A stretch of 57,198 bases of DNA from an uncultured archaeon (GTDB taxonomy: Archaea > Aenigmatarchaeota > Aenigmatarchaeia > PWEA01 > JAGHBM01): positions 1 to 57,198 of the forward strand of contig CAZXFI010000002.1 of the NCBI GenBank assembly GCA_964640225.1, given 5' to 3'. The notes under the pieces are model-generated. The model worked only from the letters and a program-made list of their open reading frames with translations, was not told the origin of the DNA and did no database searches. Shown here in pieces: positions 4,869-33,416 of this stretch. Every line of letters begins with the position of its first letter. Position 1 is the first letter of the stretch. The translations under genes and the position numbers were made by a program.

Positions 4869-5366
4869 ATGTTTTACACGGACAGGAGGTTCTTGGCCGG
4901 AATAATCGCGGTGCTGTCGGCGCTTTCAGTCCTGTATTTCTTTCTTGCACCGGACCTGCCTTCGGAAATTGTGGAAACCCTTTCCGGAAGGGACGCCTCT
5001 CTTGGTGAGGAGGAAGAGGAAACCGGACCGGAGGAGTGCCCCACGTGCGGAAGCGGGGAAACCGCGGAAGGAGACTGGGAGGAAAAAGAAGACTCCGGAG
5101 AAGGAGGAGGCGGCGGGGGCGGAGGCTCGGGAGGCTCTGAACTAGGTCCGCAGGGATGCGAGGCCCACACCGGGAACAAGAGGGACTGGTGCTACAGGGA
5201 CCTGGCCCTTGAACAGGGAGACCACACGATATGCCTGAACATAGTGGACGACTACAACAGGGACAGCTGCTACAGGTACCTGGCCATGGACCTGGACGAC
5301 CCCTCCCTCTGCGACTACATAGAAGACGAGTTCAGAAGGGAATGGTGCCACGAGCTCCTGGACTAG
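4869..5366 (+). CDS. Membrane-anchored surface protein with acidic/Gly linker and three Cys-helix repeats
   Basis: N-terminal TM, Glu/Gly-rich linker, repeats C-x6-RDWCY, C-x7-RDSCY, C-x7-REWCH. Confidence 0.7.
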   Translation: MFYTDRRFLAGIIAVLSALSVLYFFLAPDLPSEIVETLSGRDASLGEEEEETGPEECPTCGSGETAEGDWEEKEDSGEGGGGGGGGSGGSELGPQGCEAHTGNKRDWCYRDLALEQGDHTICLNIVDDYNRDSCYRYLAMDLDDPSLCDYIEDEFRREWCHELLD

Positions 5367-7496
5367 AGCTTTTTCTGTTCTTCCTTCTTCTTACCAAACT
5401 GCTCCATTACTTTCTGCGCAATCTTCGGGCCGAGAAGGTCTCCGAGCCTTTCCTTCGGGGCCTTTCTAAGCGAGGAGACCGTGCGGTAGCCGGAATTGTA
5501 GAGTATCCTTGCCCTGGCTCTTCCTATTTCCCTTAGCTTGACGAGGCTCACCAGCTCCTCTTTTATCCCGTATTTCATCCTAGTCCTGATTTTTCTTATT
5601 TTCTTTGACTCCTCCCTGAGCCTGAGCAGGTTGGAAAGCTCCTGGCAGGAGTAAAGGAGCCAGTCTGCTATATCAACCTTTGACCTGAGGCCTCCGGGCG
5701 TGACGCCGTAGTTGTCCATGAGGAAATCCTCCCCTCTTTCGTTCATCCACTCCTCCAGGGCGAGCGCTGTCTTGAAATAACAGAGAAAATTGTCATACTC
5801 CAGGTCCCAGTTGCCCGGTATCTCTATACCAATATCTTCCCTTAAGGCGAGCTTCTCTTCCAGTTTCTCCAACTCGCTTTTTCTTATTCTGAAAGGGCCC
5901 ATTTCGCTGGTGGAGCTTATCAGGAGAAGGTAGTCAAAGCTCTCCAACCCGTGCCTCATTCCGCATATCAGCCTGTGCGCGGTTTCCGGGTCCAGGTAAA
6001 GCTCCGCCACCCTCTTGCCCATTCTTGTCACCTCAAACCCCCGGTCCCTTTTTATGAAATTTTGCTCCTCCAGCTTTTCCACTATGCCGCAAAGCATGTT
6101 TTTTATCCTGGATATGTCCCCGTACTGGTGGGCAAACAGGGTATCGGAGAAAAAATCCATCAGCTGTTCCTCGTTCCTTACCGTGGTCGCTATGAGAGAA
6201 AGCACGTGTGTTCTTAAAACCGGCTCCACCGAAAGCTTTGAGTATATGTTCTCGGCCTCGCCCATGAGGAACCTTTCCGCAAGCTCCTCGGCATCCCTTT
6301 CGTTCCTTCCTATAAGTATGGATTCGCCCTCCCTGTCGTACCTGGGCCTCCCTGCCCTTCCGGACATCTGTTGGTACTCAAGAACAGGGATGTAGACAGA
6401 GCCGTAGCCGGACTGGTATCTCTTGGCGTCCCTTATTATAACTCTCCACGCCGGAAGGTTCACGCCGGCCGCAAGGGTGGGCGTGGCTGACACGATTTTG
6501 ATTAGGTTCTGCCTGAAGTAGTCCTCTATGATTGTGCGCTGGCCGTTCTGCAGGCCCGCGTGGTGGAAGGCGGTGCCGTTTTTCACGCACTCGGCAAGCC
6601 TTCTGCACTGCCTGGTTGGGTGGGAGGGCACGGACAGTATTTTCTCCGAAATGTCTTGCAACAAAACCTTTTCCTCTTCCGTTAGGAATTTTTTGACAAA
6701 CTTCCCCGTTTCCTCCGCGGTCTTTTCCGCGTTCCTCCTGCTGGACAGGAAAATGAGAGCTTGTTTGTCCCTGGACACGGTCTCTTCCGTGAGCAGAATT
6801 TCCCCGGGGTGCCTGCCCCCGATTCCCACGTCCTTCTTCCCGAGAAACCTGATCTTCTCCCCGTCGTAAACCCCCTCATGAAGCTTTACGGGCCTGTAAT
6901 CGGACTTCACCAGTCCGGCACCCAGCCACTCCGCTATGTCAATAGCGTTGCTTATGGTGGCGGAGAGCCCCAGAATCTGGGCCCTGGTGTCCCTCTTTAG
7001 TTTCGTGAGAACCACTTCCAGCGTGGGCCCCCTGCTCCCGTCATTGAGCAGGTGTATCTCGTCTGCCACTATGAGGCCTATTTCCCTTACCCATACGGGA
7101 TTGTGCCTCAAAAGGGAATCCAGCTTTTCCACGGTGACTATAATCAGGTCGGAATTGGCCAGCCAGTTGTCCGAAGAGTCGTAGTCGCCCACCGAGAGCC
7201 CGACTTTTACGCCCAGACTGCGGTACTTTTTGAAATCCTTGTATTTCTCGTAGGCCAGCGCGCGGAGCGGGACGATGTAAACAGCCTTTCCTTTCCTTTC
7301 CATTATTGTTTTTAGGAAGGCAAGCTCGGCTATTAAGGTTTTTCCAGAGGCGGTTGGCGACGCGACCACGAGATTCTTGTAATCAAGAAGCCCCTTTTCC
7401 ACCGACATTTTCTGAGGAGGGTTTAGTTTCGTGATTCCCTCCAGAACAAGCATCTCCTTCGCCTTTTCCGGCATTTTCAGTTCCTTGGTCAGCATG
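5363..7496 (-). CDS. hel308: Hel308/Hjm SF2 DNA helicase
   Basis: Q motif PPQ, SPTASGKT, DEIH, SAT, HHAGL, TPTLAAGVNLP, QMSGRAGRP, C-terminal HhH. Start taken at ATG 7496, with TTTTATAG about 25 nt upstream. Confidence 0.95.
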
Positions 7497-8804
7497 TAGA
7501 TTATTGGAGGATGAGCTATAAAAGGGTTCGTCCGTTTCAAAGGCGGCTATGTTGAAGCTTTCGTGCTTGTGCCTGCACCCCTGCTCCGGGGTGTAAGTGA
7601 ACTCCGCTCCGGAAAACAGGAGCAGGTATGGGGCGTTGCCCAAATATTTTTCTATCCTTTTCTTCTCCTTGAACACGTTTCCTCCAAGGGCCTCCTGCCT
7701 CGCGGCGCACTCCGCAATAAGGCCCAGCGCGGGCTTTTTGGAAAACCCTTTCAGCGCCTCGTCCACAGCCCCTATCATTGACTCGCCGGAGGCGGTGAGC
7801 ATCGTCATTTCCGGGTTGTCTATCCGCCTTCCCATTATTATATAGTCTCCGTAAAACATGGTTGTTATCTCCGGGTAAAGTGCCCCGTCCTTCTCAAAGG
7901 AGGGCAGGACAAAGAAGGCCCTTTTGGTGATTTGCTCGTTTATGACTCCGGGCCTCCAGCCCAGGATTCTCAGGTACTCCTGCCTGGCGGGCTTCCCGTT
8001 TATCTCCTTTATAATCAGTCCGGTTCTGTCCTTTTTGGTCACGGTGAATTTCTTGTCCGTTTTCCTGAATCCGAAGCCTGTGTCCACGTAAACGTCAAAG
8101 TCGGATTTGAGGCCCACGGCAACTATGGAGTTGTTCAGCACTTCCTTTCCGTAAAACTGCCTGTGGCAGGAAAAGTGGATATCGGCCCAGGTGGAGGCGC
8201 CAAGGCCCTTGAAATCCGGCAGAACCTCCATCATGCCTTCCCTGACTTCCTCTTCCCTGCCCATTCCCCAGCCGAATATTCCCATTATGGGAAGCATGAG
8301 CGAGACAAATCTTCCTATTATCTTGCTGTCGCTTGTTTTCCTGTAGCCGAGAACAGGCATTTTCTTCAGGATTGCCCCGGAAGTTATGTCAAAAACAAAC
8401 CCGTTTTTGCAGGGGGATGCCGCGAGCTGCCTCCTGATTTCCTCCCCTGTTTTCCTCCCGGCCTTTTTGGGATTGCCTTTCGTGCCTTTACCGAATGCCG
8501 AGGCCACGTCCATCCGGTCGCACGCCACCGCAAGCATCACTGCGCCCCAGCTGAAACATCCCCGGGGAATCATGAAGCCGGACGTGGTGCCGCCTATAAG
8601 GTGTGTTCCCTCCGGCAGGACCTCCCAGACTCCGTCCAGAAGTTTTTGGTAACCGCCGTTCCTGTAGTACTCGTAGGTGCAGGATAGAATAACGAACCTG
8701 GGTTTGCCCCCGAGCCTGTCCAGCGCGTCCCGCGCAACCTCCCTTCCCGCTTCCTTCGGGTCCCAGTTTCTTGACAACCCTATACCTACTTTTAAGCTAG
8801 TCAT
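7383..8804 (-). CDS. FIST-domain (FIST_N + FIST_C) sensory protein, copy 1
   Basis: LIGGTTSG, KEINGKPA, ECAARQ and FSGAE patterns typical of FIST proteins. C-terminal extension overlaps hel308. Confidence 0.8.
   Translation of the reverse strand: MTSLKVGIGLSRNWDPKEAGREVARDALDRLGGKPRFVILSCTYEYYRNGGYQKLLDGVWEVLPEGTHLIGGTTSGFMIPRGCFSWGAVMLAVACDRMDVASAFGKGTKGNPKKAGRKTGEEIRRQLAASPCKNGFVFDITSGAILKKMPVLGYRKTSDSKIIGRFVSLMLPIMGIFGWGMGREEEVREGMMEVLPDFKGLGASTWADIHFSCHRQFYGKEVLNNSIVAVGLKSDFDVYVDTGFGFRKTDKKFTVTKKDRTGLIIKEINGKPARQEYLRILGWRPGVINEQITKRAFFVLPSFEKDGALYPEITTMFYGDYIIMGRRIDNPEMTMLTASGESMIGAVDEALKGFSKKPALGLIAECAARQEALGGNVFKEKKRIEKYLGNAPYLLLFSGAEFTYTPEQGCRHKHESFNIAAFETDEPFYSSSSNNLHADQGTENAGKGEGDACSGGNHETKPSSENVGGKGAS
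7932..8080. repeat. 149-bp direct repeat shared by FIST copies 1 and 3
   Basis: Identical by eye to 10520-10668 (offset 2588). Confidence 0.9.
8397..8765. repeat. 369-bp direct repeat shared by FIST copies 1 and 3
   Basis: Identical by eye to 10985-11353 (offset 2588). Confidence 0.9.
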
Positions 8805-8808
8805 TGAA

Positions 8809-10101
8809 TCAGCTTTTTTTATGTCCCATTATCGCGGTGTTGTAGGACATGTTTGCGTAAGTGAACCCTCTTTCCGGGGAATAGGTGCCTTCCCCGGTGG
8901 AGAAAAACAAAAGGAAGGGCTTGTCCCTCATATATTTCCTTATTGTTTTTCTTATCTCCGCCACGTTGTTGCCCAGAGTCTGTAGTATGGTTATGCATAC
9001 AGAGAACAGTCCGAACTCCGGTTTCATGCCCTTGAAGGAGGCCATGTTAGTTTCCATGGAGTCTATCAGGCTCTTCCCGCTCATGTTCATTATCCAGGCA
9101 TCTCCCTTATCCACCTTGCACGGCGTGACAATATAATCCTTGAGTACAAGGGCCATAACCGCGGGAACCTCCCGGTCGTGCCTTTTCATGGAGAGGGGAT
9201 AATAGAAAATCTTTAAAAGAAGCGTTTCATCATTCAGGAAACCCCGGGGCCAGTTCAGCAGCCTGCTTAATTCGGGAACGGCCGGCCTGCCGTTTATCTC
9301 CTGGATTATGTGGCCGTCCTTGCTTAACTTCGTTATCTTTAGCTTTACGTTGCTTTTCTTCATTCCGTGGTTTGTAAACACGTCAAAGTCAAGGTCCGTG
9401 GCTATGCCCAGTCCCACGACGCTGTTTTCCAGAACCCTGTTGCCGAAAAACTGGCAGTTGTACATTCCCTTGAAATTGTCCGTGGAGGAGCCCAGAATCA
9501 TGCCGTAATCGGGAAGTTTTTTTGCGATTTCCTCAAAAATTTCGTCCTCTCTTCCGAGGCCTTTCTGCATTAGAATCTGGGAAACGGAAAAAAACTTGGT
9601 TATGGACTTGCTGAGGAACTCGGAGTCTATGACCTTCCTGTAGCCGTATCCCGGTATCTTCAGCACAACAGAACCGGAAACAAAATCAAAGACAAACCTG
9701 TTTCTATACAAGGAATTCTCAAAATCCTCCTCAATCATCCCGATGAATTTTTTCGCGGCTTTTTCCGGGTTTCTCTTGGTCTGCATCCCGTAGCCCATGG
9801 CCACATCCATGTTCGGGTAGGAGACGGCAAGGGCCGTTGCCCCGCGGGTGAAGCATCCGTCCTGGCTTATGAAACCCGGAACAGTCCCCCCTATCAGCGG
9901 CGTTCCCTTCGGCAAAACTTCCCAGACTCCCTCCAGGAACTTCTCAAAGCCTCCGTTATCTTTGTAGTGCACCGTGGAAAACAGAAGAAAGAAATCTGGC
10001 TTAGCACCCAGCCTGTCAAGTGCGTCCTTGGTCACTTCCCTGCCGGCCTCTTTTGCGTCCCACTTCCTAGAGAGCCCCACTGCCGCCTTTGGTTGAACCG
10101 T
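8809..10101 (-). CDS. FIST-domain sensory protein, copy 2
   Basis: LIGGTVPG, QEINGRPA and STGEG motifs. Start is either ACG at 10101 (behind a GGTGA RBS) or GTG at 10080. Confidence 0.8.
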   Translation of the reverse strand, partial: TVQPKAAVGLSRKWDAKEAGREVTKDALDRLGAKPDFFLLFSTVHYKDNGGFEKFLEGVWEVLPKGTPLIGGTVPGFISQDGCFTRGATALAVSYPNMDVAMGYGMQTKRNPEKAAKKFIGMIEEDFENSLYRNRFVFDFVSGSVVLKIPGYGYRKVIDSEFLSKSITKFFSVSQILMQKGLGREDEIFEEIAKKLPDYGMILGSSTDNFKGMYNCQFFGNRVLENSVVGLGIATDLDFDVFTNHGMKKSNVKLKITKLSKDGHIIQEINGRPAVPELSRLLNWPRGFLNDETLLLKIFYYPLSMKRHDREVPAVMALVLKDYIVTPCKVDKGDAWIMNMSGKSLIDSMETNMASFKGMKPEFGLFSVCITILQTLGNNVAEIRKTIRKYMRDKPFLLFFSTGEGTYSPERGFTYANMSYNTAIMGHKKS

Positions 10102-11404
10102 CTAACTCACCTGTTTTGTCGTTTTTGAACACCGCCACGTTGAAGCTCTCGTACTTGTTCCTGCATCCCTGCTCCGGCGTGTAGGTACATTCCCCTCCGC
10201 TGAAAAGAAGGAAGTACGGCGCGTCGCCCAGATAATTTTCTATCCTATCCTTTTCCTTGAACATGCTCGTGCCCAGGGCCTCCTGCCTCGCGGCGCACTC
10301 AGGAATTATGGCAAGCAGGGGCCGGCCGGAAAACCCTTCAAATGCCTCGTCCACCGCCCCTAGCAAAGATTTACCGGAAGCCTTTATTATGGTCATTTCA
10401 GGGTTGTCTATGGTCTTGGCCACTATTATGTAGTCGCCGTAAAACATTCCAAGTACTTCAGGATAGAGGGCTCCGTCCTTCTCAAAGGAGGGCAGGACGA
10501 ATAAGGTTCTTTTCAGGTGTTGCTCGTTTATGACTCCGGGCCTCCAGCCCAGGATTCTCAGGTACTCCTGCCTGGCGGGCTTCCCGTTTATCTCCTTTAT
10601 AATCAGTCCGGTTCTGTCCTTTTTGGTCACGGTGAATTTCTTGTCCGTTTTCCTGAATCCGAAGCCTGCATTGACGTAAGATTCAAGCTCCGACTTGAAG
10701 CCCAGGGCGACTATGGAGTTTTTGTAAACTTCCTTTCCCAGGAACTGCCTGTGGTAGGCGAACCTGCTGTCATCCCAGGTGGAGATACCCACGCCCTTGA
10801 AATCCGAAAGCGCTTTGGTAAGCTCCTCCCTCACGGGGTCGTTGCGTCCCATACCCCAGCCGAAAAGCCCCATGAGAGGCATCGCGAAGGAGACAGCCTT
10901 GGCTATGAATTTGCTTTCTATCACCTTTCTTTTTCCCACCACCGGTATTTTCGGAAGTAGCGCGGAAGAAGTAAAGTCAATAAAAAACCCGTTTTTGCAG
11001 GGGGATGCCGCGAGCTGCCTCCTGATTTCCTCCCCTGTTTTCCTCCCGGCCTTTTTGGGATTGCCTTTCGTGCCTTTACCGAATGCCGAGGCCACGTCCA
11101 TCCGGTCGCACGCCACCGCAAGCATCACTGCGCCCCAGCTGAAACATCCCCGGGGAATCATGAAGCCGGACGTGGTGCCGCCTATAAGGTGTGTTCCCTC
11201 CGGCAGGACCTCCCAGACTCCGTCCAGAAGTTTTTGGTAACCGCCGTTCCTGTAGTACTCGTAGGTGCAGGATAGAATAACGAACCTGGGTTTGCCCCCG
11301 AGCCTGTCCAGCGCGTCCCGCGCAACCTCCCTTCCCGCTTCCTTCGGGTCCCATTTACGGGACATACCCACAACTGCCTTGAATCCTGATAAATTGCTCA
11401 TCAT
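10067..11404 (-). CDS. FIST-domain sensory protein, copy 3
   Basis: Close paralogue of copy 1 with the same motifs. ATGA overlap with the upstream gene. Confidence 0.82.
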   Translation of the reverse strand: MMSNLSGFKAVVGMSRKWDPKEAGREVARDALDRLGGKPRFVILSCTYEYYRNGGYQKLLDGVWEVLPEGTHLIGGTTSGFMIPRGCFSWGAVMLAVACDRMDVASAFGKGTKGNPKKAGRKTGEEIRRQLAASPCKNGFFIDFTSSALLPKIPVVGKRKVIESKFIAKAVSFAMPLMGLFGWGMGRNDPVREELTKALSDFKGVGISTWDDSRFAYHRQFLGKEVYKNSIVALGFKSELESYVNAGFGFRKTDKKFTVTKKDRTGLIIKEINGKPARQEYLRILGWRPGVINEQHLKRTLFVLPSFEKDGALYPEVLGMFYGDYIIVAKTIDNPEMTIIKASGKSLLGAVDEAFEGFSGRPLLAIIPECAARQEALGTSMFKEKDRIENYLGDAPYFLLFSGGECTYTPEQGCRNKYESFNVAVFKNDKTGELDGSTKGGSGAL

Positions 11405-13160: not shown

Positions 13161-13196
13161 ATCTTTTTCCGCCCCATTATTAGAAAGGGTGTGGAA

Positions 13197-14537
13197 ATGG
13201 AATATTGTGGCGAATCCAGGGTAAAACTTATTGCTGTCACAGGGGGCTTGCATGACGAGCTTCTGGGCCCCGATGAAATATGCGCTATAGGCGCGCTGGG
13301 ATGTTTTGAGAAGAAGAGTTCCCAGCAGATATGGGAGGAATTGAAAGAAATGACTCCCAAAGGTTATGAAAAAAACTTGGAAGCGGTAACAGGCCACAGT
13401 GACGACAGGGGCCACGAGGCGTTTTCTGACCAGAGTTATTTCGTGTTCTCCATAGAAGATGCCACAAGGGCCACAACCCTTTCCCTCTGCGAGCCCGAAT
13501 ACCTTTCCCATCTCCAGCAGTCCTTGAGAAGGGCCACTGCTGACAGGGGGTTTTATATACCGGACGAGATAGCAGAATCTTCTCGGCTTGGGGAGACGGA
13601 AAAAATCCTGGCCGAGTCATTCTCTTTTTACCAGAGGGCCAGTGAAGCGGGAGTTCCCAAGGAGGACGCGAGGAACACCCTTCCGCTGTACGCCAAGACC
13701 AACATACAGACCGCGGGAACCGCCAGGGAACTCAGGCACCTGAAAAGCGTAAGCTTGGACGGCGGTGTGCCCTCCACGGTGGCTTTCACGGTGGAGGAAA
13801 TGATGATGCAGGCGGAAGAGATAGCGCCAAGGCTTTTCAGGGACAGGGGAGAAAAATACATGACGCTTTCAAAGAGACCATCTGCCCATCTTTTTGCGGA
13901 GACCAACGTGAGCATGAGCAAACTTATAAGGGACAAGGGGCATACTGACCGGCCGGCTCTTGTTTATTACTCGGGTATAGAAACTAACCGGGAGCAGGTG
14001 AGGGATGCCGTTGAAAACGGGAACCTGGCCGAGCTCGCGAACCTGAAGCACGTGCATTTCGGTTTTCTGGCTCCCATGTCGCTGTCGTGTTTTCACCAGG
14101 CCATAAGGCAGAGAACCTGGAACCATTCAATAGAGTCAATATACGACGCGGCCAAGAGGAGGCGGGCCGTGACCCCGCCGAAAATCGCGGATTTAGGATT
14201 TTCAGATGAATATGACCACCAGAACGAAATGATGTTTGACCTTTACGAAAGCCTTGTTGAGGACGGGGTTTCTGCGAGAGAGGCCGTCGGGGTTCTTCCC
14301 CATTCTCTTCAGGTTTACGACCTGGTTCACGTGGACGGCTGGAACGCTGTCCATTCCATAGGCAAAAGGACATGCACGAAAGCCCAGTGGGAGATAAGGG
14401 GGATAGCGAAGGAAATGGCCCGCCTGATAAAAGAGAAGAATCCTCCCGTGGGTGTGTACGCGGAGCCTCAATGTATAACGTACGATAGGTGCCCTGAGAG
14501 CGACCCCTGCGGATATTTCAAATCTCGTAGACCCTGA
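13197..14537 (+). CDS. thyX: Tandem-domain flavin-dependent thymidylate synthase-like protein
   Basis: Domain 1: GHEAFSDQ, QQSLR, EDARNTLP. Domain 2: FHQAIRQR-x7-S and KR-x4-AQWEIR. Lies downstream of tmk. Confidence 0.75.
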   Translation: MEYCGESRVKLIAVTGGLHDELLGPDEICAIGALGCFEKKSSQQIWEELKEMTPKGYEKNLEAVTGHSDDRGHEAFSDQSYFVFSIEDATRATTLSLCEPEYLSHLQQSLRRATADRGFYIPDEIAESSRLGETEKILAESFSFYQRASEAGVPKEDARNTLPLYAKTNIQTAGTARELRHLKSVSLDGGVPSTVAFTVEEMMMQAEEIAPRLFRDRGEKYMTLSKRPSAHLFAETNVSMSKLIRDKGHTDRPALVYYSGIETNREQVRDAVENGNLAELANLKHVHFGFLAPMSLSCFHQAIRQRTWNHSIESIYDAAKRRRAVTPPKIADLGFSDEYDHQNEMMFDLYESLVEDGVSAREAVGVLPHSLQVYDLVHVDGWNAVHSIGKRTCTKAQWEIRGIAKEMARLIKEKNPPVGVYAEPQCITYDRCPESDPCGYFKSRRP

Positions 14538-15186
14538 ACTTCCAGACTTCTTCCAGGGATTTCCTGAGGGAATCAAGCTTCATATGCCTTATGTTCAGGA
14601 CTCTCTCCATGACGCAGAACTTGTCAAGGTAGTTGCAGAACCCGCAGAACTTCTTGACTGTCTGCGAATCGCCGCCGAAGAAAACGTAGTCTATCTTGCT
14701 CTGGTAGGGGCCGAACTTCTCCCTCACCTGGGAGCATACCGACTTGAAGAAGTCGTTTATCTGCCCCTCCCTTATCCTTGAGTAGCGCGCAGCGCTCTGC
14801 CCCCCGGCCCTGGTCTGCCCGCTCACGAACTGGGTTCCGGTCTTGTGGGTGACCAGGTTTTTCCCCTCAAAAACACCCAATGAGTATTCGCCCAGCCTCA
14901 GCAGGATTACGCCCAGCGTGAATTTTCTTTCCATCTGAAGGTGAAGCAGGTTCAGGCCGTCTTCAAAAGTCTTTACTATGGGGAAAGGAGGTATTATTAT
15001 GTAGGATTTCTCCCCACTGAGAAGGATTGCGCCTGTCTCGCTTTTGCCTATCTTGTAGGCGGTTTCCTGTATTTTTTCGTCAAGCCCCTCCGAAAAATCG
15101 GGAAAGTCTTCAGGGTTTATGTAGCAGATTTCCCCGGTAAAGCTTTTTACGAGCTCCAGCATCCCCTCTTTGTTTTTCGTTTTCAT
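14518..15186 (-). CDS. VLRF1 (Vms1/acVLRF1-like) aeRF1-family peptidyl-tRNA release factor
   Basis: GQTRAGGQSAARYSRIRE motif, LLRLGEYSLGVFEG strand, VFFGGD. Confidence 0.75.
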   Translation of the reverse strand: MKTKNKEGMLELVKSFTGEICYINPEDFPDFSEGLDEKIQETAYKIGKSETGAILLSGEKSYIIIPPFPIVKTFEDGLNLLHLQMERKFTLGVILLRLGEYSLGVFEGKNLVTHKTGTQFVSGQTRAGGQSAARYSRIREGQINDFFKSVCSQVREKFGPYQSKIDYVFFGGDSQTVKKFCGFCNYLDKFCVMERVLNIRHMKLDSLRKSLEEVWKFRVYEI

Positions 15187-15753
15187 CTAACTCCTCTTCT
15201 TGTCAAACTTTTCAAAGAAGGCGGCGAAGTCCGAGAGGTATATGTCCTTGAGCTCCTTTCTTCCGGTCTTCATCTTGAACCTGTCAAGCAGTTCCTGCCT
15301 GCTGCTAACGCCGAAGTATCTCATAAACTCGTCGGTGAGAATAAGCATCTTGGTCCTACCGACCTTCTCGGTCTTTATCAGCCCCCGGAGCTCCAAATCC
15401 TTCACGTAGTCATAGGCCCGGTTGCCTATCGTCTTCACAATCTCGCTCTGGGTTATTCCTTTCTTGTACACTGCCAGGGAAAGAACTTTCAGCATGGCCC
15501 TGGAAAGGTCCGCGTAAGGAGTAAGGTGGGATACAAGGTCCAGGTATTTTTCCTTCACTTTTATGTGATAATTATTGTCTATGGAAAGGAGCTCCACTCC
15601 CCTGTGCTCCTGCTCCATTTCCGAACCTATCTGGCTGACCAGCCTGTTTATGTCAGGCTCCTTCAGGCCTGTTATTTTGGATAGCTCGGTTATGTTCAGG
15701 GGCTTGTCGGATATGAAGAGAGCCGCCTCCAGAAGAGCCTTTTTTTCATTCAT
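15187..15753 (-). CDS. scpB: SMC-kleisin accessory (kite) protein ScpB
   Basis: LLEAALF...P, tandem winged helices, ITQSEIVKTIG, GRTKMLILTDEFMRYFG. Confidence 0.9.
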   Translation of the reverse strand: MNEKKALLEAALFISDKPLNITELSKITGLKEPDINRLVSQIGSEMEQEHRGVELLSIDNNYHIKVKEKYLDLVSHLTPYADLSRAMLKVLSLAVYKKGITQSEIVKTIGNRAYDYVKDLELRGLIKTEKVGRTKMLILTDEFMRYFGVSSRQELLDRFKMKTGRKELKDIYLSDFAAFFEKFDKKRS

Positions 15754-16432
15754 CGGTATCTCCCTTTAGTTTTATGTATATGTCCTTAAAAACTTCCTTC
15801 TGCTCGCAGGAAACTTTTCCCCCCTGGGAAAGATGAAGCAGTGGAAGGAACTTGTCCACGATTTCCTTTCTCTCCCACTTGGGCACAAGCTTGTCAAAAG
15901 TTATCTCGCCGGCTCTGAGCTCGTCAAGTATTCCGTTTATGCTCTGGTAAAGGTTTTCTATCCTTTCGTCTATGTCCTCCTCGTCCTCTATCAGTTCCTC
16001 AACCCTTCTCCTGGCCCTGATTCTCTTGTCCTCCCTTATCTCCTTTGTGCGGAAAGCCTTGTCCAGGGCGGAAACCAGCTCCTCCAATGTGACTTTTCTT
16101 CTCGGGATTCTCTTTATCGGAGTTTCAAGGTCAGGGACCTGGGACAGGTCTATCAGTTCCTCCTCCTCCTCTTTCTCCTCCTGTTTTTGTTCCTCCTCTT
16201 CCAGGAGAAGCACCACCTTCATCCTGAGAAGTATGGCGGATATTATGATTATTCTTGAGGGCACCTTGAAATCCAGAATTTCCATTTTCTTTACGTAATC
16301 AAGAAGGGCGTTCGCCAGCTTGACTATGTCTATGTCCCAGGGGTCCATGCCTTCCTCCGTGATTATGTACTCCAGGACTTCCTCCCAGTTGGACTCGGTG
16401 GAGGCCATTTTGACTATATCCTTTTCTTCCAT
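15746..16432 (-). CDS. scpA: Kleisin ScpA
   Basis: MDPWDIDIVKL N-terminal motif and C-terminal FLPLLHL...KV...EQKEVFKDI. Start set at ATG 16432. Confidence 0.9.
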   Translation of the reverse strand: MEEKDIVKMASTESNWEEVLEYIITEEGMDPWDIDIVKLANALLDYVKKMEILDFKVPSRIIIISAILLRMKVVLLLEEEEQKQEEKEEEEELIDLSQVPDLETPIKRIPRRKVTLEELVSALDKAFRTKEIREDKRIRARRRVEELIEDEEDIDERIENLYQSINGILDELRAGEITFDKLVPKWERKEIVDKFLPLLHLSQGGKVSCEQKEVFKDIYIKLKGDTDE

Positions 16433-16535: not shown

Positions 16536-17018
16536 ATGTTGGGAAACAAAGGTATATCTCCGCTAATAGCCGCGGTAATCCTCATAGCGTTCGTGATAGC
16601 AGTTGCAGGGATAGCGTCAACTTTCTTCACGGGATTCACCAAGGAGCAGAAGGCAGGAGTGGAATCCAAGGCAGGGACTATAGTGGACTGCTCTGTGGCG
16701 ACGCTGGAGCTGGACGATGATGCAGTCAGCATAAACATGAACTCCACCAGCCCCGGAAACTTCAGCCTCGTGGTATCAAACACGGGGAGCGAAGACCTGA
16801 GCGGGCTTAAGGTGATAGTTTTCAACAGCACCTACGCCGGAACGTGCGTGCCAACCACCCAGAGCGTAAACATAGGACAGACTGTAACGCTGATAAACAG
16901 CTCATGCGCCGAGATGCCAAGCGGAACCGCGACAAAAGTGCAGGTAACAACGGAGTCGTGCGCCGGAGTGAAATCCGAGCTCACGAACGTAACCGGAGAA
17001 TGGAGAGTAACTGCCTGA
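16536..17018 (+). CDS. Archaeal type IV pilin with class III signal peptide
   Basis: KG|ISPLIAAVILIAFVIAVAG cleavage and hydrophobic motif. Four Cys in the globular part. Confidence 0.88.
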   Translation: MLGNKGISPLIAAVILIAFVIAVAGIASTFFTGFTKEQKAGVESKAGTIVDCSVATLELDDDAVSINMNSTSPGNFSLVVSNTGSEDLSGLKVIVFNSTYAGTCVPTTQSVNIGQTVTLINSSCAEMPSGTATKVQVTTESCAGVKSELTNVTGEWRVTA

Positions 17019-17116: not shown

Positions 17117-17117
17117 C

Positions 17118-19541
17118 TCAGTTTTCAGGCATTTTTATTGCCATGACTTTTGACACGCCGTCCTCCATTGATATCCCGTAGACCTGGTCGGCCATTTTTA
17201 TGGTCACGTCATTGTGGGTTATTACAATAAACTGCGCCCTTTCGGACTGCTTCTTAATGAGCATACCTATCTTCTTTGAGTTAATCTTGTCCAGCGCCGC
17301 ATCCACCTCGTCCAGGACATAAAACGGGGCTGGCTTGTACATCTGCACCGCGAAAAGGAACGCCAGCGCGGTTAGTGTCTTTTCCCCGCCCGACATGGAG
17401 TCTATGCTAAGCATCTTCTTTCCCTTGGGCCTTGCTTTTATTATAAGCCCGGACCTTATGTCTTCAGGCTCCTCAAGCTCCAGGCTTGCGGTGCCCTCTC
17501 CTATTTCCTGGAAAAGCTCCCCGAAGTTCTCGTTTACCGCGTCAAATGCCTTCATAAAGACTTCCCTTCTCCTTGATTCTACCCTTTCAACGGTTTTCAG
17601 TATGGCCTCTTTTTCCTTCACTATTCTCTGGGTTTTTTCGTTCAGGTCGTCGTAAAGCATCTTCATGCTCTCGTAGTCCTCTATGGCCTTCATGTTCACC
17701 GCGCCTATTCTCCTTAGCTTTTCCACCACGGATTTCTTCTGGCTCTGCATTGATTCAATGTCCTGCTCAAGGAAAGTTTCCATGTCCCTGTACTCCTCAA
17801 ACTCCAGCTCAAGGTTCTCTATCTGGGTTTCCAGCCTGGTTTTCTTAATCCTCAGGTCTCCCACCTTTGACTGGTAGGTGAGCTTCTTCTCGTATAGCTT
17901 CTGTCTCTTGCCCCTTATTTCCTCAAGCTCCTCTCCTATCCTGTTTATCTCTCCCTCATACTCCGTGGACTTTATCTCTTTTTCCTCTTCCTGTCTGAGC
18001 TTGCTTATCTTCTCTTCCGCCACGGCAATAAGGTCTTTCAGGTACTCGTTCTCCCCCTCAAGCGCCTTCCTGTCCTCCCTGTACTTGGAGACCTCCTGCA
18101 TCCTTGACTTTTCCTTCCTGTAGCCTCCCGTCATTGCGCCCGATTTCAGTATGAGCTCCCCGTCCAGAGTAACCATCCTGTACCTTCCCATGAGCCTCCT
18201 TGCGTTTTCCAGCCTGTCAACCACGAGCGTGTTGGCGAACACATATTTCATTGCCGGCCCGTAAAGCGGCTCGTATTCAATCAGGTTTACGGCAAAGTCT
18301 ATCACCCCAGGCGCCTCCTTGAGTTTTTCCTGGTGGTGTTTTATTTTGTTGAGCGGAAGGAAAGTTGCCCTGCCGATTCTGTCTTTCTTGAGAAAATCTA
18401 TGCACTCCGCCGCCACACTATCGTCTTTAACCACAATGTCTTTCATGCGACCTCCCGCGGCCACCTCCAGTGCAGTCTGGTATTTCGTGTCAGCGGTGAA
18501 CAAATCAGCCACGCACCCGTAAACCCCGGCCCTCTTTTTCAGCAGGGCGCTTACCTGGTCGTGCTGGGAAAGTCTTTTTATCATTTCCCCAAGCCTCTGT
18601 ATCTCCCTGAGGTTGCTCTCTATCTTGTTCCTGTGCTTGCTTATTTCAGTGTCCAGCCTGTTGTAAGCCTCTGTGTCCCTGTTCCTCTTAAGGGCCTTTG
18701 AGGTGAGTTCTTTCATCTTTTTCTGCCTTTCCTCCATGGAAGAGTCGTAGCCGCCGAATTCATTGTCCGTTTCCCGGAACTCCTTTTCCGTTTTTTCCAG
18801 CGCTTCCTTCACTGTCTTCAAATTTTCCTGTGCCATTGAAAGCTTCTTGTATATAATGGAGCCTGACAGGGCTTTCATCTGCTCGTCCAGAGTTTTGTAC
18901 TCCCTGGCAAGTTTCTCCTCCCTTTCCAACTTTTTCAGCACGTTCCTCTTCTCGTTGAGCCTTATGTCCGCCTCCTTCAGCTTGGCGTCAACCTTGGCCA
19001 GTTCGTTCTCCGCCTTAGTTTTCTTGTCCTCAAACTCCGCTATGCCCGATATCTCATCTATTATCTCCTTTCTCTGAAGGGGGGTCATCTCTATCAGGTT
19101 CGTGACGTCTCCCTGCATTATTATGTTGTGCCCGTCGGCGTATATCCCCGAGCTGGCAAGTATGTCCACTATTTTTCTCCTGTTCACGGTGCTGCCGTTC
19201 AGCTTGTATATACAGACGCCGTTCTTGTTGACCTTCCTGGTTATTTTTAAAAAATCCTCGCCTGCTATGTCACCCTGCTCGTTGTTAAGGTAAAGATTCA
19301 CCACGCCATACTTGGCGCCCGCCCTTTTCTTCCCACCGTTGAAAATAAGATGCTCCAGCCTTTCGGCCCTTATGGTCTTGGCGGACCTTATTCCCAGAAC
19401 GAAGCAGAGAGAATCAACTACGTTTGACTTCCCGGAGCCGTTGGCCCCGCATATTACGTTAAAGCCTGAAGGAAAGGGCATTGCTGTCTTGTTTGCAAAG
19501 GACTTGAATCCCTGCATTGATAGTTTTTCTATCCTTACCAT
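17118..19541 (-). CDS. smc: Chromosome segregation protein Smc (short-armed, 807 aa)
   Basis: FKSF, GANGSGKSN, hinge (GRATFLPL, VTLDG..GAMTGG), SGGEK, VLDEVDAALD, ITHN. Confidence 0.95.
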   Translation of the reverse strand: MVRIEKLSMQGFKSFANKTAMPFPSGFNVICGANGSGKSNVVDSLCFVLGIRSAKTIRAERLEHLIFNGGKKRAGAKYGVVNLYLNNEQGDIAGEDFLKITRKVNKNGVCIYKLNGSTVNRRKIVDILASSGIYADGHNIIMQGDVTNLIEMTPLQRKEIIDEISGIAEFEDKKTKAENELAKVDAKLKEADIRLNEKRNVLKKLEREEKLAREYKTLDEQMKALSGSIIYKKLSMAQENLKTVKEALEKTEKEFRETDNEFGGYDSSMEERQKKMKELTSKALKRNRDTEAYNRLDTEISKHRNKIESNLREIQRLGEMIKRLSQHDQVSALLKKRAGVYGCVADLFTADTKYQTALEVAAGGRMKDIVVKDDSVAAECIDFLKKDRIGRATFLPLNKIKHHQEKLKEAPGVIDFAVNLIEYEPLYGPAMKYVFANTLVVDRLENARRLMGRYRMVTLDGELILKSGAMTGGYRKEKSRMQEVSKYREDRKALEGENEYLKDLIAVAEEKISKLRQEEEKEIKSTEYEGEINRIGEELEEIRGKRQKLYEKKLTYQSKVGDLRIKKTRLETQIENLELEFEEYRDMETFLEQDIESMQSQKKSVVEKLRRIGAVNMKAIEDYESMKMLYDDLNEKTQRIVKEKEAILKTVERVESRRREVFMKAFDAVNENFGELFQEIGEGTASLELEEPEDIRSGLIIKARPKGKKMLSIDSMSGGEKTLTALAFLFAVQMYKPAPFYVLDEVDAALDKINSKKIGMLIKKQSERAQFIVITHNDVTIKMADQVYGISMEDGVSKVMAIKMPEN

Positions 19542-20267: not shown

Positions 20268-22997
20268 ATGAAGTATTCCGAGCTGACCCGGACCTACGAG
20301 AGGCTGGAGAGCACCCAGTCAAAGCTGGAAAAAGCGGACATACTCGCAGAACTTTTCAGGAAGGCCAACGACCGGGACTTGCCGAAGCTAGTTCTCCTGG
20401 CTTCGGGCCGCGTGTTCCCGTCCTATTCCAAGGAGGTTATAGGAATAGCCTCAAAGCTTATGGTAAAGGCCATAGCAAAGGCCGCTGGGTTCTCGCTGAA
20501 AGAGGTTGAGGGCAAGTTCAAGGAAACAGGGGACCTCGGGCTTACGGCGGCTTATTTCGTTGGCTCAAGGAAACAGCAGACGCTTTTCAAAAAGGACCTT
20601 GACACGGACAAGGTTTTTGAAAACCTTAGAAAACTGCCGGGCATAACCGGTTTGCGCTCGCAGGAAAAGAAGATGAACCTGATAGCGGAGCTTTTCGCCT
20701 CCGCCGGCCCGAAAGAATCCGTTTACATAACACGCACCATTCTGGAGGAGATGAGGGTGGGAGTTGCAAGGGGCATAATAAGGGATTCAATTGTCAAAGC
20801 TTTCCTTGAGCCGGAGGACAAGGAGAAAAAGAAAGAGCTTACGGAGGCGGTGGAGTACGCCTTCAACATCACGTCCGATTTCAGCAGGGTAATTGTTATA
20901 GCCAAGGAGAAAGGAGAAAAAGGCCTGAAGAGCGTCAAGGTGCATCCCGGCCGGCCCCACCACCTGATGCTCGGGGAAAAGGCCGAATCCATAAAGGAGA
21001 TAACGGACAAGTTCGGAAAGGTTGCCGTTGAGTACAAGTACGATGGCATGAGATGCGTTTCAGGTTTCACCTACATATATGTGAAGAATAAAGGCATGTT
21101 CCCGGTCAGGGATGTTAAAGTTGGTGATGAGGTTCTGACACATAAAGGAAGGTTCAGGAAAGTTATTGCTAAAAACAAGAGAAAATTGGACAAAGGAGAA
21201 AAAATATTTAGATTTTCTACATATCTTGGCAATGAATTTAAAATTACGGAAGGACACGAAATTTTAGTAAATACAAAAAGTAAAATTAAATGGGTTCCAG
21301 TAGAAAAGGTTCCCAAAGGAGCCGAAGCGGTATTTTCCATACCGCGGATTAAAAACAAAGAAAAAGTTCCAAACAAAATGGTGCTCAGTACCATAGGCAA
21401 TTACAAAAAAGAAATTAAATTAAATGAAGATTTTTTCCGTTTCATGGGCTGTTGGGTAGGCGATGGGTATTCCAACGAATATAACAATACACACAGGCTG
21501 GGAATAGTTTTCAACCAAAACAAAAGAAAAAAAATAGAGTATTACAAGAACATAATCATAAAAAAATTGGGTATATTAAAAGACAAAGTTTCTGAACATA
21601 CGCATAACGGTGGCACGAGCGTTTACTGGACAGACACGCCTTTACTTAAATGGATTTCAGCTAATTTCAGAAAAGAAGGCGGAAAAGGATGTAGAGACAA
21701 AAAACTGCCCTCTTGGTTTTGGAATATCTCTGAAAACCAATTTAAGGCCTTTTTAAAGGGATGGAAAGATGCCGATGGATATGAAGATAAAACAGGAATA
21801 GCTTCCATAATGACCAAAGAAAAGCAATTGGCTTCTCTCACCCAACTAATAGCCCTGAAATTTGGCATAATACTGGGCGTTAGAAAGGTTAGGGTAAATG
21901 ATAAAAACTATTATAAAATCATTTTTACCAAATCAAGCAAACATGCCCGCATAAAAAATAATACACTTTTTGTCAGAATCCTGAAAAAGGAGAAAATAAA
22001 ATATCCTGACCCGAGAACAATAGTTTATAATCTTCAGGTTAAAGACGATGAAAGTTATTGTACAACCATAGCTTCCTTGCATAATTGCGAAATTCACAAG
22101 AAGAACGACAAAATATGGGTTTTCACAAGAAGGCTGGACGACGTTAGCAGGCAGTTTCCGGACCTTGTGGAGCTGTGCAAAAAGGGGCTTAAGCCAGCAG
22201 AGTGCGTGGTGGAAGGCGAAGTGCTGTCCGTGGACGAAAAAGGCTACCCCAAGCCCTTCCAGAGCCTGTCGCAGAGAATACAGAGAAAATACGACATAAA
22301 GGAGATAGTAAAGAAAATACCCATACAGATAAACCTTTTTGACATAACCTACCTTAACGGGAAAATGCTTTTTGACAAGACCTTCAGCGAAAGGAGAAGG
22401 TTGCTGGAAAAATCCGTCAAATCCCGGGAAGGGAAACTGCAGCTGGCCAGGCAGATAGTCACCGATGACCCGAAAAAAGCGGGCAAATTCTACAAGGAGG
22501 CCCTCAAGGCAAGGCAGGAGGGGGTTTTTCTCAAGGTTCCCGGTTCAAAATACGTTTTCGGCAGGCACGTCAACGGCTGGTACAAGATAAAGCCCATAAT
22601 GGAGACTCTTGACCTGGTTATCGTGGCGGCCACATGGGGCGAGGGCAAGCGCTCAAAGTGGTTGAGCTCCTACGTGCTGGCCTGCAGGGACCCCGATACA
22701 GACGAGTTCCTCCCCTGCGGCATGATGGGCACGGGTCTCACGGAGGAGATGTTCCAGACCATGACGGACACTCTAGAACCCATGGTAACGGAGGAAAAAG
22801 GCAAGAACGTGAAGGTAAGGCCGAAAGTAGTCGTGGAGGTGGCCTACCAGGAGATACAGAAGTCCCCAACCTACAGGGCAGGCTACGCCCTGCGGTTCCC
22901 GAGGCTCCTTAAAATCAGGGAAGACAAGGGTCCCGAGGAGGCGGACACCCTGGAAAGGCTTGAAAAGCTTTACAAGACCCAGGGAAGAGGGGGCTGA
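20268..22997 (+). CDS. lig: ATP-dependent DNA ligase (precursor containing an intein; about 565 aa after splicing)
   Basis: Motif I EYKYDG, VVEGE, FDITY, EGVFLK, WYKIK, LRFPR. Confidence 0.96.
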   Translation: MKYSELTRTYERLESTQSKLEKADILAELFRKANDRDLPKLVLLASGRVFPSYSKEVIGIASKLMVKAIAKAAGFSLKEVEGKFKETGDLGLTAAYFVGSRKQQTLFKKDLDTDKVFENLRKLPGITGLRSQEKKMNLIAELFASAGPKESVYITRTILEEMRVGVARGIIRDSIVKAFLEPEDKEKKKELTEAVEYAFNITSDFSRVIVIAKEKGEKGLKSVKVHPGRPHHLMLGEKAESIKEITDKFGKVAVEYKYDGMRCVSGFTYIYVKNKGMFPVRDVKVGDEVLTHKGRFRKVIAKNKRKLDKGEKIFRFSTYLGNEFKITEGHEILVNTKSKIKWVPVEKVPKGAEAVFSIPRIKNKEKVPNKMVLSTIGNYKKEIKLNEDFFRFMGCWVGDGYSNEYNNTHRLGIVFNQNKRKKIEYYKNIIIKKLGILKDKVSEHTHNGGTSVYWTDTPLLKWISANFRKEGGKGCRDKKLPSWFWNISENQFKAFLKGWKDADGYEDKTGIASIMTKEKQLASLTQLIALKFGIILGVRKVRVNDKNYYKIIFTKSSKHARIKNNTLFVRILKKEKIKYPDPRTIVYNLQVKDDESYCTTIASLHNCEIHKKNDKIWVFTRRLDDVSRQFPDLVELCKKGLKPAECVVEGEVLSVDEKGYPKPFQSLSQRIQRKYDIKEIVKKIPIQINLFDITYLNGKMLFDKTFSERRRLLEKSVKSREGKLQLARQIVTDDPKKAGKFYKEALKARQEGVFLKVPGSKYVFGRHVNGWYKIKPIMETLDLVIVAATWGEGKRSKWLSSYVLACRDPDTDEFLPCGMMGTGLTEEMFQTMTDTLEPMVTEEKGKNVKVRPKVVVEVAYQEIQKSPTYRAGYALRFPRLLKIREDKGPEEADTLERLEKLYKTQGRGG
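21054..22085 (+). mobile_element. Intein (344 aa) with LAGLIDADG homing endonuclease
   Basis: Starts CVSG, contains VGDEVLTH and ITEGHEIL, blocks GCWVGDG and FLKGWKDADG, ends VYNLQV...LHN followed by Cys+1. DNA is visibly more AT-rich than the flanks. Confidence 0.93.
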
Positions 22998-31322: not shown

Positions 31323-33416
31323 ATGTTCGTTGGAATAAAAAAGCGTAACGGAAAAGTCGTTAAGTTTAATCCAAATAAGATTACCGATGCAATAGCCAAA
31401 GCAGGTGAATCCACAGGAGAATTTGACAGAGGAGTTGCCGAAAAATTAGCCTTAAGAGTTCTTAGTATGTCTCAGCAGATTTTTCAGGACAAGATGCCTA
31501 CCGTGGAGGAAATACAGGACATTGTGGAAGAAGTTCTTCTATCTTCCACATACAGAAAAACAGCAAAGGCCTACATAATCTACAGGGAACAACACGCCAA
31601 GATGAGGGAGATTTCCGAAAATGCAAGCGTTGACCTGGTAAACCAGTACCTGAAAAAAGTGGACTGGCAGGTGAACGAGAACAGCAACATGACTTTCTCG
31701 TTGCAGGGGCTTAACAACTACGTTTCATCAGAGATAAGCAAGATATACTGGCTTAACGAGATTTACCCTCCGGAAGTAAGGGAAGCCGCTAAAAACGAAG
31801 ATTTTCACATACATGATTTAAATCTCTTGGCAGTTTACTGCGTGGGATGGGACCTTTACGATCTGCTGACCCAGGGATTCAGGGGGGTGGACGGCAAGAT
31901 AGAGAGCAGGCCCGCAAAGCACTTCAGGAGCGCACTAGGGCAGGTTGTAAATTTTTTCTACACACTCCAGGGAGAGGCGGCCGGGGCTCAGGCCTTTTCC
32001 AACTTTGATACGTTGCTGGCCCCGTTCATAAGGTACGACAACCTTAACTATACTCAGGTAAAGCAGGCCCTTCAGGAGTTTCTTTTCAACATAAACGTTC
32101 CCACTAGGGTGGGATTCCAGACTCCCTTCACCAACGTAACCTTGGACCTGAATCCTCCGAGTTACTACAGAGATCAGGGGGTCATCGTAGGCGGGGAACA
32201 AAAGAAAGAGACCTACGGGGATTTCCAGAAAGAAATGGACATGTTCAACAAAGCTTTTTTTGAAGTGATGACAGAGGGCGACGCCAAGGGAAGAGTGTTC
32301 ACCTTTCCCATACCCACATATAATATAACAAAGGACTTTGACTGGGAAAACGAGAATTTGGAGGGCCTGTGGAGCATGTCCGCTAAATACGGGATACCTT
32401 ACTTTTCCAACTTCGTAAATTCTGACATGAAACCTGAAGATGCCCGTTCCATGTGCTGCCGGCTGCGCCTGGATAAACGCGAACTTGAAAAGAGGGGAGG
32501 CGGGCTTTTCGGCTCAAGCCCGCTCACCGGATCCGTGGGCGTGGTAACCATAAACATGCCCAGGCTGGGTATTTTATCCAAAGGTGAAGAGGAATTTATA
32601 GAAAACTTGGATAAACTTATGGTAAAGGCCAAGGAAAGTCTGGAAATAAAAAGAAAAATTCTGGAGAAATTCACTGAAAAAAATCTCTATCCTTACTCAA
32701 AATTTTACCTGAGAAACATGAAAGAGAGGTTCGGGGAGTACTGGAAAAATCATTTCTCCACCATAGGGCTTATAGGCATGAACGAGGCATGTCTTAACCT
32801 TATAGGGGAAGACATAGGGAGCGATAAAGGAAAGAAATTCTCGCTGAAAGTTTTGGATTTTATGAGAAAAAGGCTGATTGATTTTCAGAAGGAAACCGGC
32901 AACAACTACAATCTGGAGGCAACCCCCGCGGAGGGAACTTCTTATAGGCAGGCAAAGCTGGACAAAAAAATTCACCCCAATATAAAATGCGCGAACGAAG
33001 AAGAATACAAAGAAGGTGCAGAGCCCTATTATACCAACTCCACACAGCTTCCCGTGAACTACACGGACGATGTGTTTGAGGCGCTTGACCTTCAGGACGA
33101 GCTTCAGTCCAGATATACAGGGGGAACAGTCCTTCACATATTTGCCGGCGAAAGAATAAGGGACTCCGAAGCTTTAAAGGATTTGGTGAAAAAAATTTGC
33201 CAAAATTATCACCTACCCTACTTTACCTTCACCCCGACGTTCAGTATTTGCCCGACACACGGATATCTGGAAGGCGAAAAAAAGACATGTCCAAATTGCG
33301 GGGAAAATTGCGAGATATACTCAAGGGTAGTGGGCTACCTGCGTCCGGTCAAGCAGTGGAACAAGGGCAAGCAGGAGGAGTTCAGGGAAAGGAAAAATTT
33401 CAAGGCGAAAAAATGA
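31323..33416 (+). CDS. nrdD: Class III (anaerobic) ribonucleoside-triphosphate reductase with N-terminal ATP cone
   Basis: IKKRNG ATP cone, MCCRL finger loop, EATPAEG, CPTH...CPNC zinc site, glycyl-radical loop SRVVGYLRP. Confidence 0.95.
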   Translation: MFVGIKKRNGKVVKFNPNKITDAIAKAGESTGEFDRGVAEKLALRVLSMSQQIFQDKMPTVEEIQDIVEEVLLSSTYRKTAKAYIIYREQHAKMREISENASVDLVNQYLKKVDWQVNENSNMTFSLQGLNNYVSSEISKIYWLNEIYPPEVREAAKNEDFHIHDLNLLAVYCVGWDLYDLLTQGFRGVDGKIESRPAKHFRSALGQVVNFFYTLQGEAAGAQAFSNFDTLLAPFIRYDNLNYTQVKQALQEFLFNINVPTRVGFQTPFTNVTLDLNPPSYYRDQGVIVGGEQKKETYGDFQKEMDMFNKAFFEVMTEGDAKGRVFTFPIPTYNITKDFDWENENLEGLWSMSAKYGIPYFSNFVNSDMKPEDARSMCCRLRLDKRELEKRGGGLFGSSPLTGSVGVVTINMPRLGILSKGEEEFIENLDKLMVKAKESLEIKRKILEKFTEKNLYPYSKFYLRNMKERFGEYWKNHFSTIGLIGMNEACLNLIGEDIGSDKGKKFSLKVLDFMRKRLIDFQKETGNNYNLEATPAEGTSYRQAKLDKKIHPNIKCANEEEYKEGAEPYYTNSTQLPVNYTDDVFEALDLQDELQSRYTGGTVLHIFAGERIRDSEALKDLVKKICQNYHLPYFTFTPTFSICPTHGYLEGEKKTCPNCGENCEIYSRVVGYLRPVKQWNKGKQEEFRERKNFKAKK

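Follow-up and report, generated by a model that had tools for sequence, protein, structure and literature searches.

SMC proteins have coiled-coil arms, usually presented as a conserved ruler some 50 nm long. The smc gene at positions 17118–19541 of contig CAZXFI010000002.1 (57,198 nucleotides, the whole stretch of DNA analysed here, referred to as the window) encodes a protein of 807 amino acids (aa) with far shorter arms, and it raises the question of whether its product is a working Smc, a decaying one, a specialised member of the SMC family or an artefact of assembly or gene calling. Our analysis favoured the first of these. With a probability of roughly 80%, the gene encodes an Smc ATPase with arms of half length, which would serve an archaeon of the Aenigmatarchaeota (DPANN) as its housekeeping Smc, with DNA work of the Smc-ScpAB type predicted by homology. 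The DPANN origin guessed in the initial annotation, which was made from the sequence alone, was right, the lineage being Aenigmatarchaeota. The gene is organised as follows, in the order of the protein:

17118..19541, minus strand: smc, 807 aa plus stop codon (17118–17120), an uninterrupted open reading frame (ORF) with an ATG start.
19041..19541, minus strand: N-terminal half of the ATPase head (aa 1–167), with Walker A (19425–19448), R58 and Q143, from the motif alignment.
18531..19040, minus strand: N-terminal arm strand (aa 168–337), with helix 168–280, break 281–290 (18672–18701) and helix 291–324, from AlphaFold2 (AF2), the heptad signal and an anchor-based length of 170 aa.
18120..18530, minus strand: SMC hinge dimerisation domain (aa 338–474), with G-x6-G-x3-GG at aa 461–473 (PF06470, E 1.3e-33; PDB hinges 4rsj, 3nwc and 1gxl).
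17577..18119, minus strand: C-terminal arm strand (aa 475–655), with helix 480–515, break 516–528 (17958–17996), helix 529–584 and joint interruptions 585–594 and 613–617 (17691–17789), from AF2, the heptad signal and a long orthologue.
17121..17576, minus strand: C-terminal half of the ATPase head (aa 656–807), with MSGGEK, FYVLDE and DAALD (17289–17396) and H776, from its motifs and matches to the PDB Smc heads 5xei and 5xns.

The single 807-aa ORF with all ATP-binding cassette (ABC) motifs and a full hinge, as initially described, was borne out by the ORF itself, by Pfam and by a motif alignment of 44 relatives. In Pfam, SMC_N covers aa 4–797 (E 1.5e-67) and SMC_hinge (PF06470) aa 338–450 (E 1.3e-33). 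The head carries Walker A (GANGSGKS, aa 32–39), the Q-loop (Q143), the signature MSGGEK (aa 716–721), Walker B (FYVLDE, aa 740–745), the D-loop (DAALD) and the H-loop (H776), and the hinge glycines are arranged as G461-x6-G468-x3-G472-G473, which we take to be the canonical motif of the Smc hinge; these ABC and hinge positions are invariant or nearly so in the alignment. The score against TIGR02169 (SMC_prok_A), the NCBIfam equivalog for archaeal-type Smc, was 782.5 bits, above the cut-off of 729.4, and TIGR02168 was also passed (589.3 bits, cut-off 567.35). The top PDB matches were Pyrococcus Smc head, joint and hinge structures, 5xei and 5xns among them, and a Foldseek search returned SMC structures as the best hits, including Pyrococcus Smc head-plus-joint crystals and cohesin and condensin chains. 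Judged by its sequence, the product of 17118..19541 is a canonical archaeal Smc. About 25–30 nt 5' of the smc ATG, ATATATAAA resembles an archaeal TATA box and is a candidate for one.

The anatomy of the arm was taken from an AF2 model of a single chain, built from the alignment of 44 relatives (mean pLDDT 80.8). The helix at aa 168–280 of the N strand is paired with aa 529–655 of the C strand, and that at aa 291–324 with aa 480–515. After its break, the C strand continues as helix 529–584, loop 585–594, helix 595–612, loop 613–617 and helix 618–681, the last of them entering the head. Because the two strands match in length in both the hinge-side pair (34 vs. 36 residues) and the head-side pair (113 vs. 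about 112 helical residues), the arm is symmetric in the model; by AF2 boundaries, the strands measure 170 aa (N) and 181 aa (C), with a ratio of 0.94. Hydrophobic periodicity of 3.5 residues, as a family average, is clear on both strands and weak only at aa 211–240 and 554–582, which correspond to the joint zone. The C-strand loops that face a continuous N helix are, as modelled, the Smc joint described for Bacillus subtilis and Pyrococcus (Diebold-Durand et al. 2017). A long orthologue (P0145, 1178 aa) folded likewise showed the same joint, at aa 947–959 and 976–983, and far longer helices (N strand, 167–418 and 422–509; C strand, 672–787 and 797–946). The limits first given for the N-terminal arm (about aa 170–325) and the hinge (about aa 326–474) proved right to within a few residues by AF2 and Pfam, and the asymmetric or out-of-register arms considered in the initial annotation were not what we found, both strands being of matched length and carrying a heptad signal. 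At a coiled-coil rise of about 0.148 nm per residue, the approximately 157 residues of the arm come to about 23 nm and those of the long form to about 50 nm; both lengths derive from residue counts and not from coordinates.

The amount of missing arm was measured across 261 relatives as the residues lying between hidden Markov model (HMM) anchors for the N-head (aa 1–167), the hinge (aa 338–474) and the C-head (from aa 612), with these results:

Window Smc: N strand 170 aa, C strand 137 aa.
Short class, median (n = 144): N strand 182 aa, C strand 141 aa.
Mid class, median (n = 4): N strand 251 aa, C strand 207 aa.
Long class, median (n = 113): N strand 349 aa, C strand 304 aa.

The offset between N and C strands set by the HMM anchors is almost constant (medians of 40 aa in the short, 44 in the mid and 45 in the long class), and the loss is therefore equal on both strands. 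Relative to the long-class median, it amounts to 167 aa (N) and 163 aa (C) for the short-class median and to 179 and 167 aa for the window Smc, and relative to the single long orthologue that was folded, to about 192 and 175 aa. The shortening of about 190 aa per arm initially proposed was thus of the right order, its value being slightly high. A further estimate, (total length − 498)/2, was calibrated on B. subtilis Smc, where 1186 aa with a 344-aa arm leave 498 non-arm residues; it put the arm at about 165 aa in the family median (828 aa) and at about 155 aa in the window Smc. Within the short class, N-strand lengths have peaks one heptad apart, at 170, 177, and 184 aa, and the subclade of the window Smc (P0001–P0014) has the 170-aa form, among the shortest.

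As for where the arm was shortened, in a MAFFT E-INS-i alignment of short, mid and long proteins the columns specific to the long ones fall mostly after aa 286 and after aa 521, that is, at the two AF2 breaks. MAFFT and the two AF2 models agree only roughly on the lost segment, and phmmer local alignments extend equally well from head or hinge and do not discriminate. Since alignment inside coiled coils is soft, the placement is a best guess, in which the hinge with about 45 residues of coil would be set on the head-proximal 110 or so residues, the middle of the arm being gone. The breaks at aa 281–290 and 516–528 may be either a deletion scar or the homologue of the break in the long form (aa 419–421 and 788–796). 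Like canonical Smc (B. subtilis, 1186 aa; Pyrococcus), the protein combines head, hinge, joint and an antiparallel coiled coil with adjacent scpA and scpB genes; unlike it, it has strands of about 155–170 residues where about 340 are typical, which gives a predicted arm of about 23 nm where 47–50 nm would be the norm, and the uninterrupted middle of the arm is absent. In outline it is also similar to the engineered B. subtilis Mini-Smc, made of a hinge with a short coil upon a joint-bearing head-proximal coil; both MAFFT and AF2 place the missing segment between these two parts. In contrast to the engineered proteins, whose functional arms measure 253–267 aa, the window Smc is natural and conserved.

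Arms of this size had been seen before in a survey of natural Smc, where modes were reported at 238 and 341 aa together with a "possible minor mode at 163 aa" (Bürmann et al. 2017, Mol Cell 65:861, PMC5344682). In the same work, the viability of B. subtilis with resized Smc arms followed a 91-aa period, and the engineered proteins were named "Mini-Smc". In its main text and accessible supplements, no taxon, structure or gene context is given for the 163-aa mode. Beyond this remark, our literature search for short-armed archaeal Smc returned nothing, and a preprint on the Ureaplasma SMC holds nothing on arm length. Whether this length class was already catalogued, a doubt raised in the initial annotation, can be answered in part: the half-arm class was glimpsed statistically, not characterised, and a mode left unplaced in that paper is here tied to Aenigmatarchaeota and nanohaloarchaea with scpAB synteny. 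For the window Smc, the two strands average close to 163 aa and the shorter one reaches no less than 75% of the longer, an approximate agreement. With arm estimates of some 165 aa at the family median and some 155 aa in the window Smc, the match to the mode is good only to about ±10 aa, as the exact domain boundaries of PMC5344682 were not reproduced.

A shortening close to two 91-aa periods had also been proposed. The arithmetic holds at the level of the family: 344 − 2 × 91 is 162 aa, so that the family, at about 165 aa, lies around two periods under the norm of 341–344 aa, with the window Smc about one heptad shorter. However, the gaps between the natural modes are 75 and 103 aa, not 91, and because of this uneven spacing (163, 238 and 341 aa) the periodicity argument is suggestive only. 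The short-arm family and the 91-aa rule are consistent with one another.

The half-arm format extends well beyond this gene. At least 144 relatives, down to 34% identity, share a format of 790–860 aa. The best 120 database matches were almost all of 797–855 aa, down to 42% identity, those with a name being Aenigmatarchaeota; two of the 120 reach about 1385 aa owing to inteins. In a GTDB survey with one genome per species, the best 80 loci were all of the short format and belonged mostly to Aenigmatarchaeota, plus metagenome-assembled genomes (MAGs) of Nanohalarchaeota and Ca. Nanosalina, with strand medians over 79 species genomes of 182 aa (N) and 140 aa (C). Among representatives at 50% identity from an exhaustive search, the short class is followed directly by proteins of 1072–1220 aa, with only four at 943–1012 aa. 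A cluster look-up supplied taxonomic names for almost none of the distant members. The closest long relatives with a name are those of other DPANN (Woesearchaeota, Nanoarchaeota/Nanoarchaeia, Parvarchaeota and Ca. Tiddalikarchaeum; 1097–1207 aa), which have small genomes and share about 35% identity overall and about 50% in head and hinge but, unlike the window Smc, keep about 300–350 aa per strand. On the proteins compared, Aenigmatarchaeota and nanohaloarchaea have the half-arm format throughout, as a fixed and conserved trait, and it is not DPANN-wide, so the idea of short arms as a trait of all DPANN does not stand. As other DPANN keep long arms, the short arm is lineage-specific and not a general outcome of DPANN genome reduction, and genome streamlining alone does not explain it.

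With regard to its origin, the short class fell apart in neighbour-joining trees of 261 proteins, built from 503 columns of head and hinge, into a main group (127 proteins), a second group of Aenigmatarchaeota (7), a group of nanohaloarchaeal type (9) and 1 singleton. The short class was monophyletic in 1 of 100 bootstraps, and neighbour joining is too crude to choose between one and several origins. A stepwise path from long to mid to short was considered and gained no support, the four mid-length proteins (943–1012 aa) being nearest to the long ones by core-domain identity. Tentatively, and at rather less than even odds, the halving of the arm by about two superhelical periods may have been a discrete, lineage-defining change, either a single rare event that links two groups of disputed relationship or convergence on the same permitted length. 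Nanohaloarchaea are placed away from DPANN in the NCBI taxonomy, so that a shared arm deletion might carry phylogenetic information.

The genes next to smc in the window bear on its function:

15187..15753, minus strand: scpB (kite subunit), 188 aa, with an 8-nt overlap with the end of scpA (SMC_ScpB, E 1.1e-33; TIGR00281, 90.3 bits vs. a cut-off of 89.2).
15746..16432, minus strand: scpA (kleisin), 228 aa from an internal ATG at 16432, from start-codon analysis (Pfam SMC_ScpA, E 2e-16).
16536..17018, plus strand: pilin-like ORF, 160 aa, with an archaeal class III signal peptide/pilin-like N-terminus (MLGNKGISPLIAAVILIAFVIAV...) and a weak Arch_flagellin match.

A longer ORF for scpA (361 aa, from 16831) overlaps the gene on the opposite strand; its first 130 or so aa have no family match, and SMC_ScpA covers aa 157–355 of it. 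Both scpA and scpB lie 0.7 kb downstream of smc on the same strand. In 46 of the 80 related loci scpA is found downstream of smc, with scpB there too in 30 of them, nanohaloarchaeal loci included.

Compared with a 77%-identical orthologue (CP070662.1), the ratio of nonsynonymous to synonymous rates (dN/dS) is 0.07 for the N arm, 0.09 for the C arm, 0.07 for the hinge and 0.05–0.09 for the heads, values that are rough because dS is near saturation; on these sequences, the arm strands are under purifying selection. The dN/dS of the arm, the adjacent scpA and scpB genes, the kept synteny and the lack of a second SMC-like ORF in the window argue for what would be a working Smc-ScpA(B) complex. The naturally minimised but functional Smc of the initial annotation is therefore upheld as natural and functional-looking (motifs, symmetry, dN/dS, synteny, and orthologues), although as the standard form of its lineage and not as an individual curiosity. 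Several points weigh against this reading. The dS behind the selection estimates is about 1–2.5. The opposite-strand pilin-like gene at 16536..17018 stands between smc and scpAB, so these are not one operon here. Several archaeal ScpA do not bind ScpB even when encoded by neighbouring genes (Jeon et al. 2020), and since archaeal ScpB often fails in this binding, the Smc complex may be binary. The search that found no second SMC-like ORF was of the 57,198-nt window, not of the whole genome. In the main text of PMC5344682, the shortened B. subtilis arms that work measure only 253–267 aa, none of them near 160 aa, so that no half arm is known to function in B. subtilis, the sole tested system; most shorter arms there fail to leave the loading site. 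The AF2 model is of a single chain with a pTM of 0.46, and dimer or rod geometry lies beyond such a model. Finally, it is from homology that we infer dimerisation, ATPase activity, and DNA entrapment or loop extrusion for the whole family, and any effect of the short arm on loop-extrusion step size is of the same kind.

These points have to be set beside the alternatives. Genome reduction in a symbiont could have cut the arms, with the DNA-organising function lost or fading, and DPANN genomes are indeed small (related chromosomes of 0.74–1.05 Mb), while most shortened B. subtilis arms are non-functional (PMC5344682). Such decay is nevertheless very unlikely, given that more than 140 relatives, with identity as low as 34%, have kept this length, that the catalytic and hinge motifs are all invariant, that both strands are equally short and retain the heptad signal and the joint, that dN/dS in the arm is 0.07–0.09, that the partner genes are kept in synteny, and that other DPANN of equally small genome have a long Smc. 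It is highly improbable, too, that the protein is a specialised paralogue (Rad50/SbcC-like, archaea-specific SMC-related, or a defence protein such as JetC or LmuB) instead of a housekeeping condensin: its apex is a true SMC hinge with no zinc hook, the SMC_prok_A cut-off is passed with 782 bits, the genes beside it are scpA and scpB and not those for a nuclease, JetABD or LmuA, and the window contains no second SMC-like ORF. Short coils are typical of several SMC-like families, and orthologues are often annotated merely as "AAA family ATPase" at NCBI, both of which would fit a paralogue, as would the PADLOC cross-matches to mad3 (202 bits) and LmuB (67 bits); these, however, are confined to generic head segments. 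The individual candidates were rejected: Rad50/SbcC, with an SMC hinge found instead of the CxxC zinc hook and the best Rad50 model at 89.7 bits against a cut-off of 700; ASRP (NF045487), at 110.3 against 300; arcadin-4, at 19.7 against 860; RecN, at 46 against 408; and the defence SMC proteins, with partial head-region matches only (mad3 over aa 497–806; JetC at most 34 bits) and no defence partners.

An artefact would require that a coiled-coil repeat had collapsed, with about 1.1 kb lost from a 3.5-kb smc. Coiled-coil genes are rich in Glu and Lys and repetitive, and the source is a metagenome. The region 16400–19700 is identical in contigs of four public microbial-mat metagenome runs, in two of which it lies inside one 27.9-kb contig (word depths of 42 and 28) that shows no difference, indel or joint, so the misassembly initially considered was not found. 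A collapse would moreover need matching losses at two separate sites in the gene, and orthologues of equal length come from many unrelated studies, among them closed MAG chromosomes as well as Ca. Aenigmarchaeum subterraneum (a single-cell genome) and Ca. Nanosalina sp. VS9-1 (a complete genome). An artefact is hardly credible on this evidence.

As a housekeeping Smc, two copies of the protein would dimerise via the hinge, each of them folding back to form an antiparallel coiled-coil arm. The kleisin ScpA would bridge both ATP-binding heads, with ScpB possibly bound to it, and the complex would entrap or extrude chromosomal DNA like other Smc-ScpAB complexes. The sole difference would be in the arm, where each strand has about 155–170 residues, against about 340 in the long form, and where about 23 nm replace the usual 50 nm or so. 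Of this arm, the head-proximal joint and some 45 residues of hinge-proximal coil would have been kept, and the long uninterrupted middle lost symmetrically on both strands.

In addition to these results, inteins account for unusual lengths in the family. Several short-class Smc (P0063, P0111, P0124, P0127, P0130, and P0248; loci L024, L049, L062, and L073) reach 1320–1390 aa, the cause being an intein of about 550 aa near Walker A, at about aa 23–38 in window numbering; for example, aa 38–807 of the window Smc align to aa 589–1383 of P0063. Long-class Smc of 1660–1805 aa carry inteins as well. In other DPANN (P0296–P0408), Smc lengths gather at about 1097–1112 and 1160–1167 aa, which hints at a smaller step of about 25–30 aa per arm strand inside the long class. 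Two short-class loci, L077 (CAZTJJ010000027.1) and L071 (JAIVYS010000002.1), come from MAGs labelled "Thermotogae bacterium" and "Bathyarchaeota", respectively, probably through mis-binning or mislabelling; L077 is nearest to the nanohaloarchaeal type.

Elsewhere in the window, directly downstream of scpB with no gap, an ORF of 222 aa (14518..15186, minus strand) has eRF1 domain 2 and VLRF1-type release-factor-like matches. An ATP-dependent DNA ligase of 909 aa (20268..22997, plus strand) is split at about aa 240–606 by an intein that contains a LAGLIDADG homing-endonuclease region, the three ligase domains lying on its flanks. Three tandem paralogues of 473, 423, and 445 aa (7383..11404, minus strand) each contain a FIST N sensory domain. 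The flavin-dependent thymidylate synthase ThyX (13191..14537, plus strand) has 448 aa, about twice the usual size, and two Thy1 stretches, which suggests that it is internally duplicated or fused. Finally, a Hel308-like archaeal helicase (5363..7540, minus strand), an anaerobic ribonucleotide reductase NrdD with an ATP-cone (31323..33416, plus strand) and an archaeal-type threonyl-tRNA synthetase with an editing domain (37208..39070, minus strand) are ordinary archaeal housekeeping context.

In models of loop extrusion, arm length and superhelical phase are linked to step size and to the capture of DNA. A conserved complex found in nature whose arms measure about 23 nm would be a small target for cryo-electron microscopy and single-molecule work, and would put to a natural test the "tuned arm" rule, which has so far rested on engineered B. 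subtilis variants; some relatives, the nanohaloarchaea, grow in co-culture. Should the halving prove to be discrete, whether single or convergent, it would be natural evidence for a quantised SMC arm length and would offer a ready-made minimal Smc-ScpAB for relating arm length to loop-extrusion step. The short arm may also serve as a rare-genomic-change marker for placing the nanohaloarchaea. Because other DPANN keep long arms, the short ones are not a mere by-product of genome reduction. The main value of this Smc, which is neither a one-off oddity nor an error, would lie in trying out models of arm length on a minimal SMC complex found in nature.

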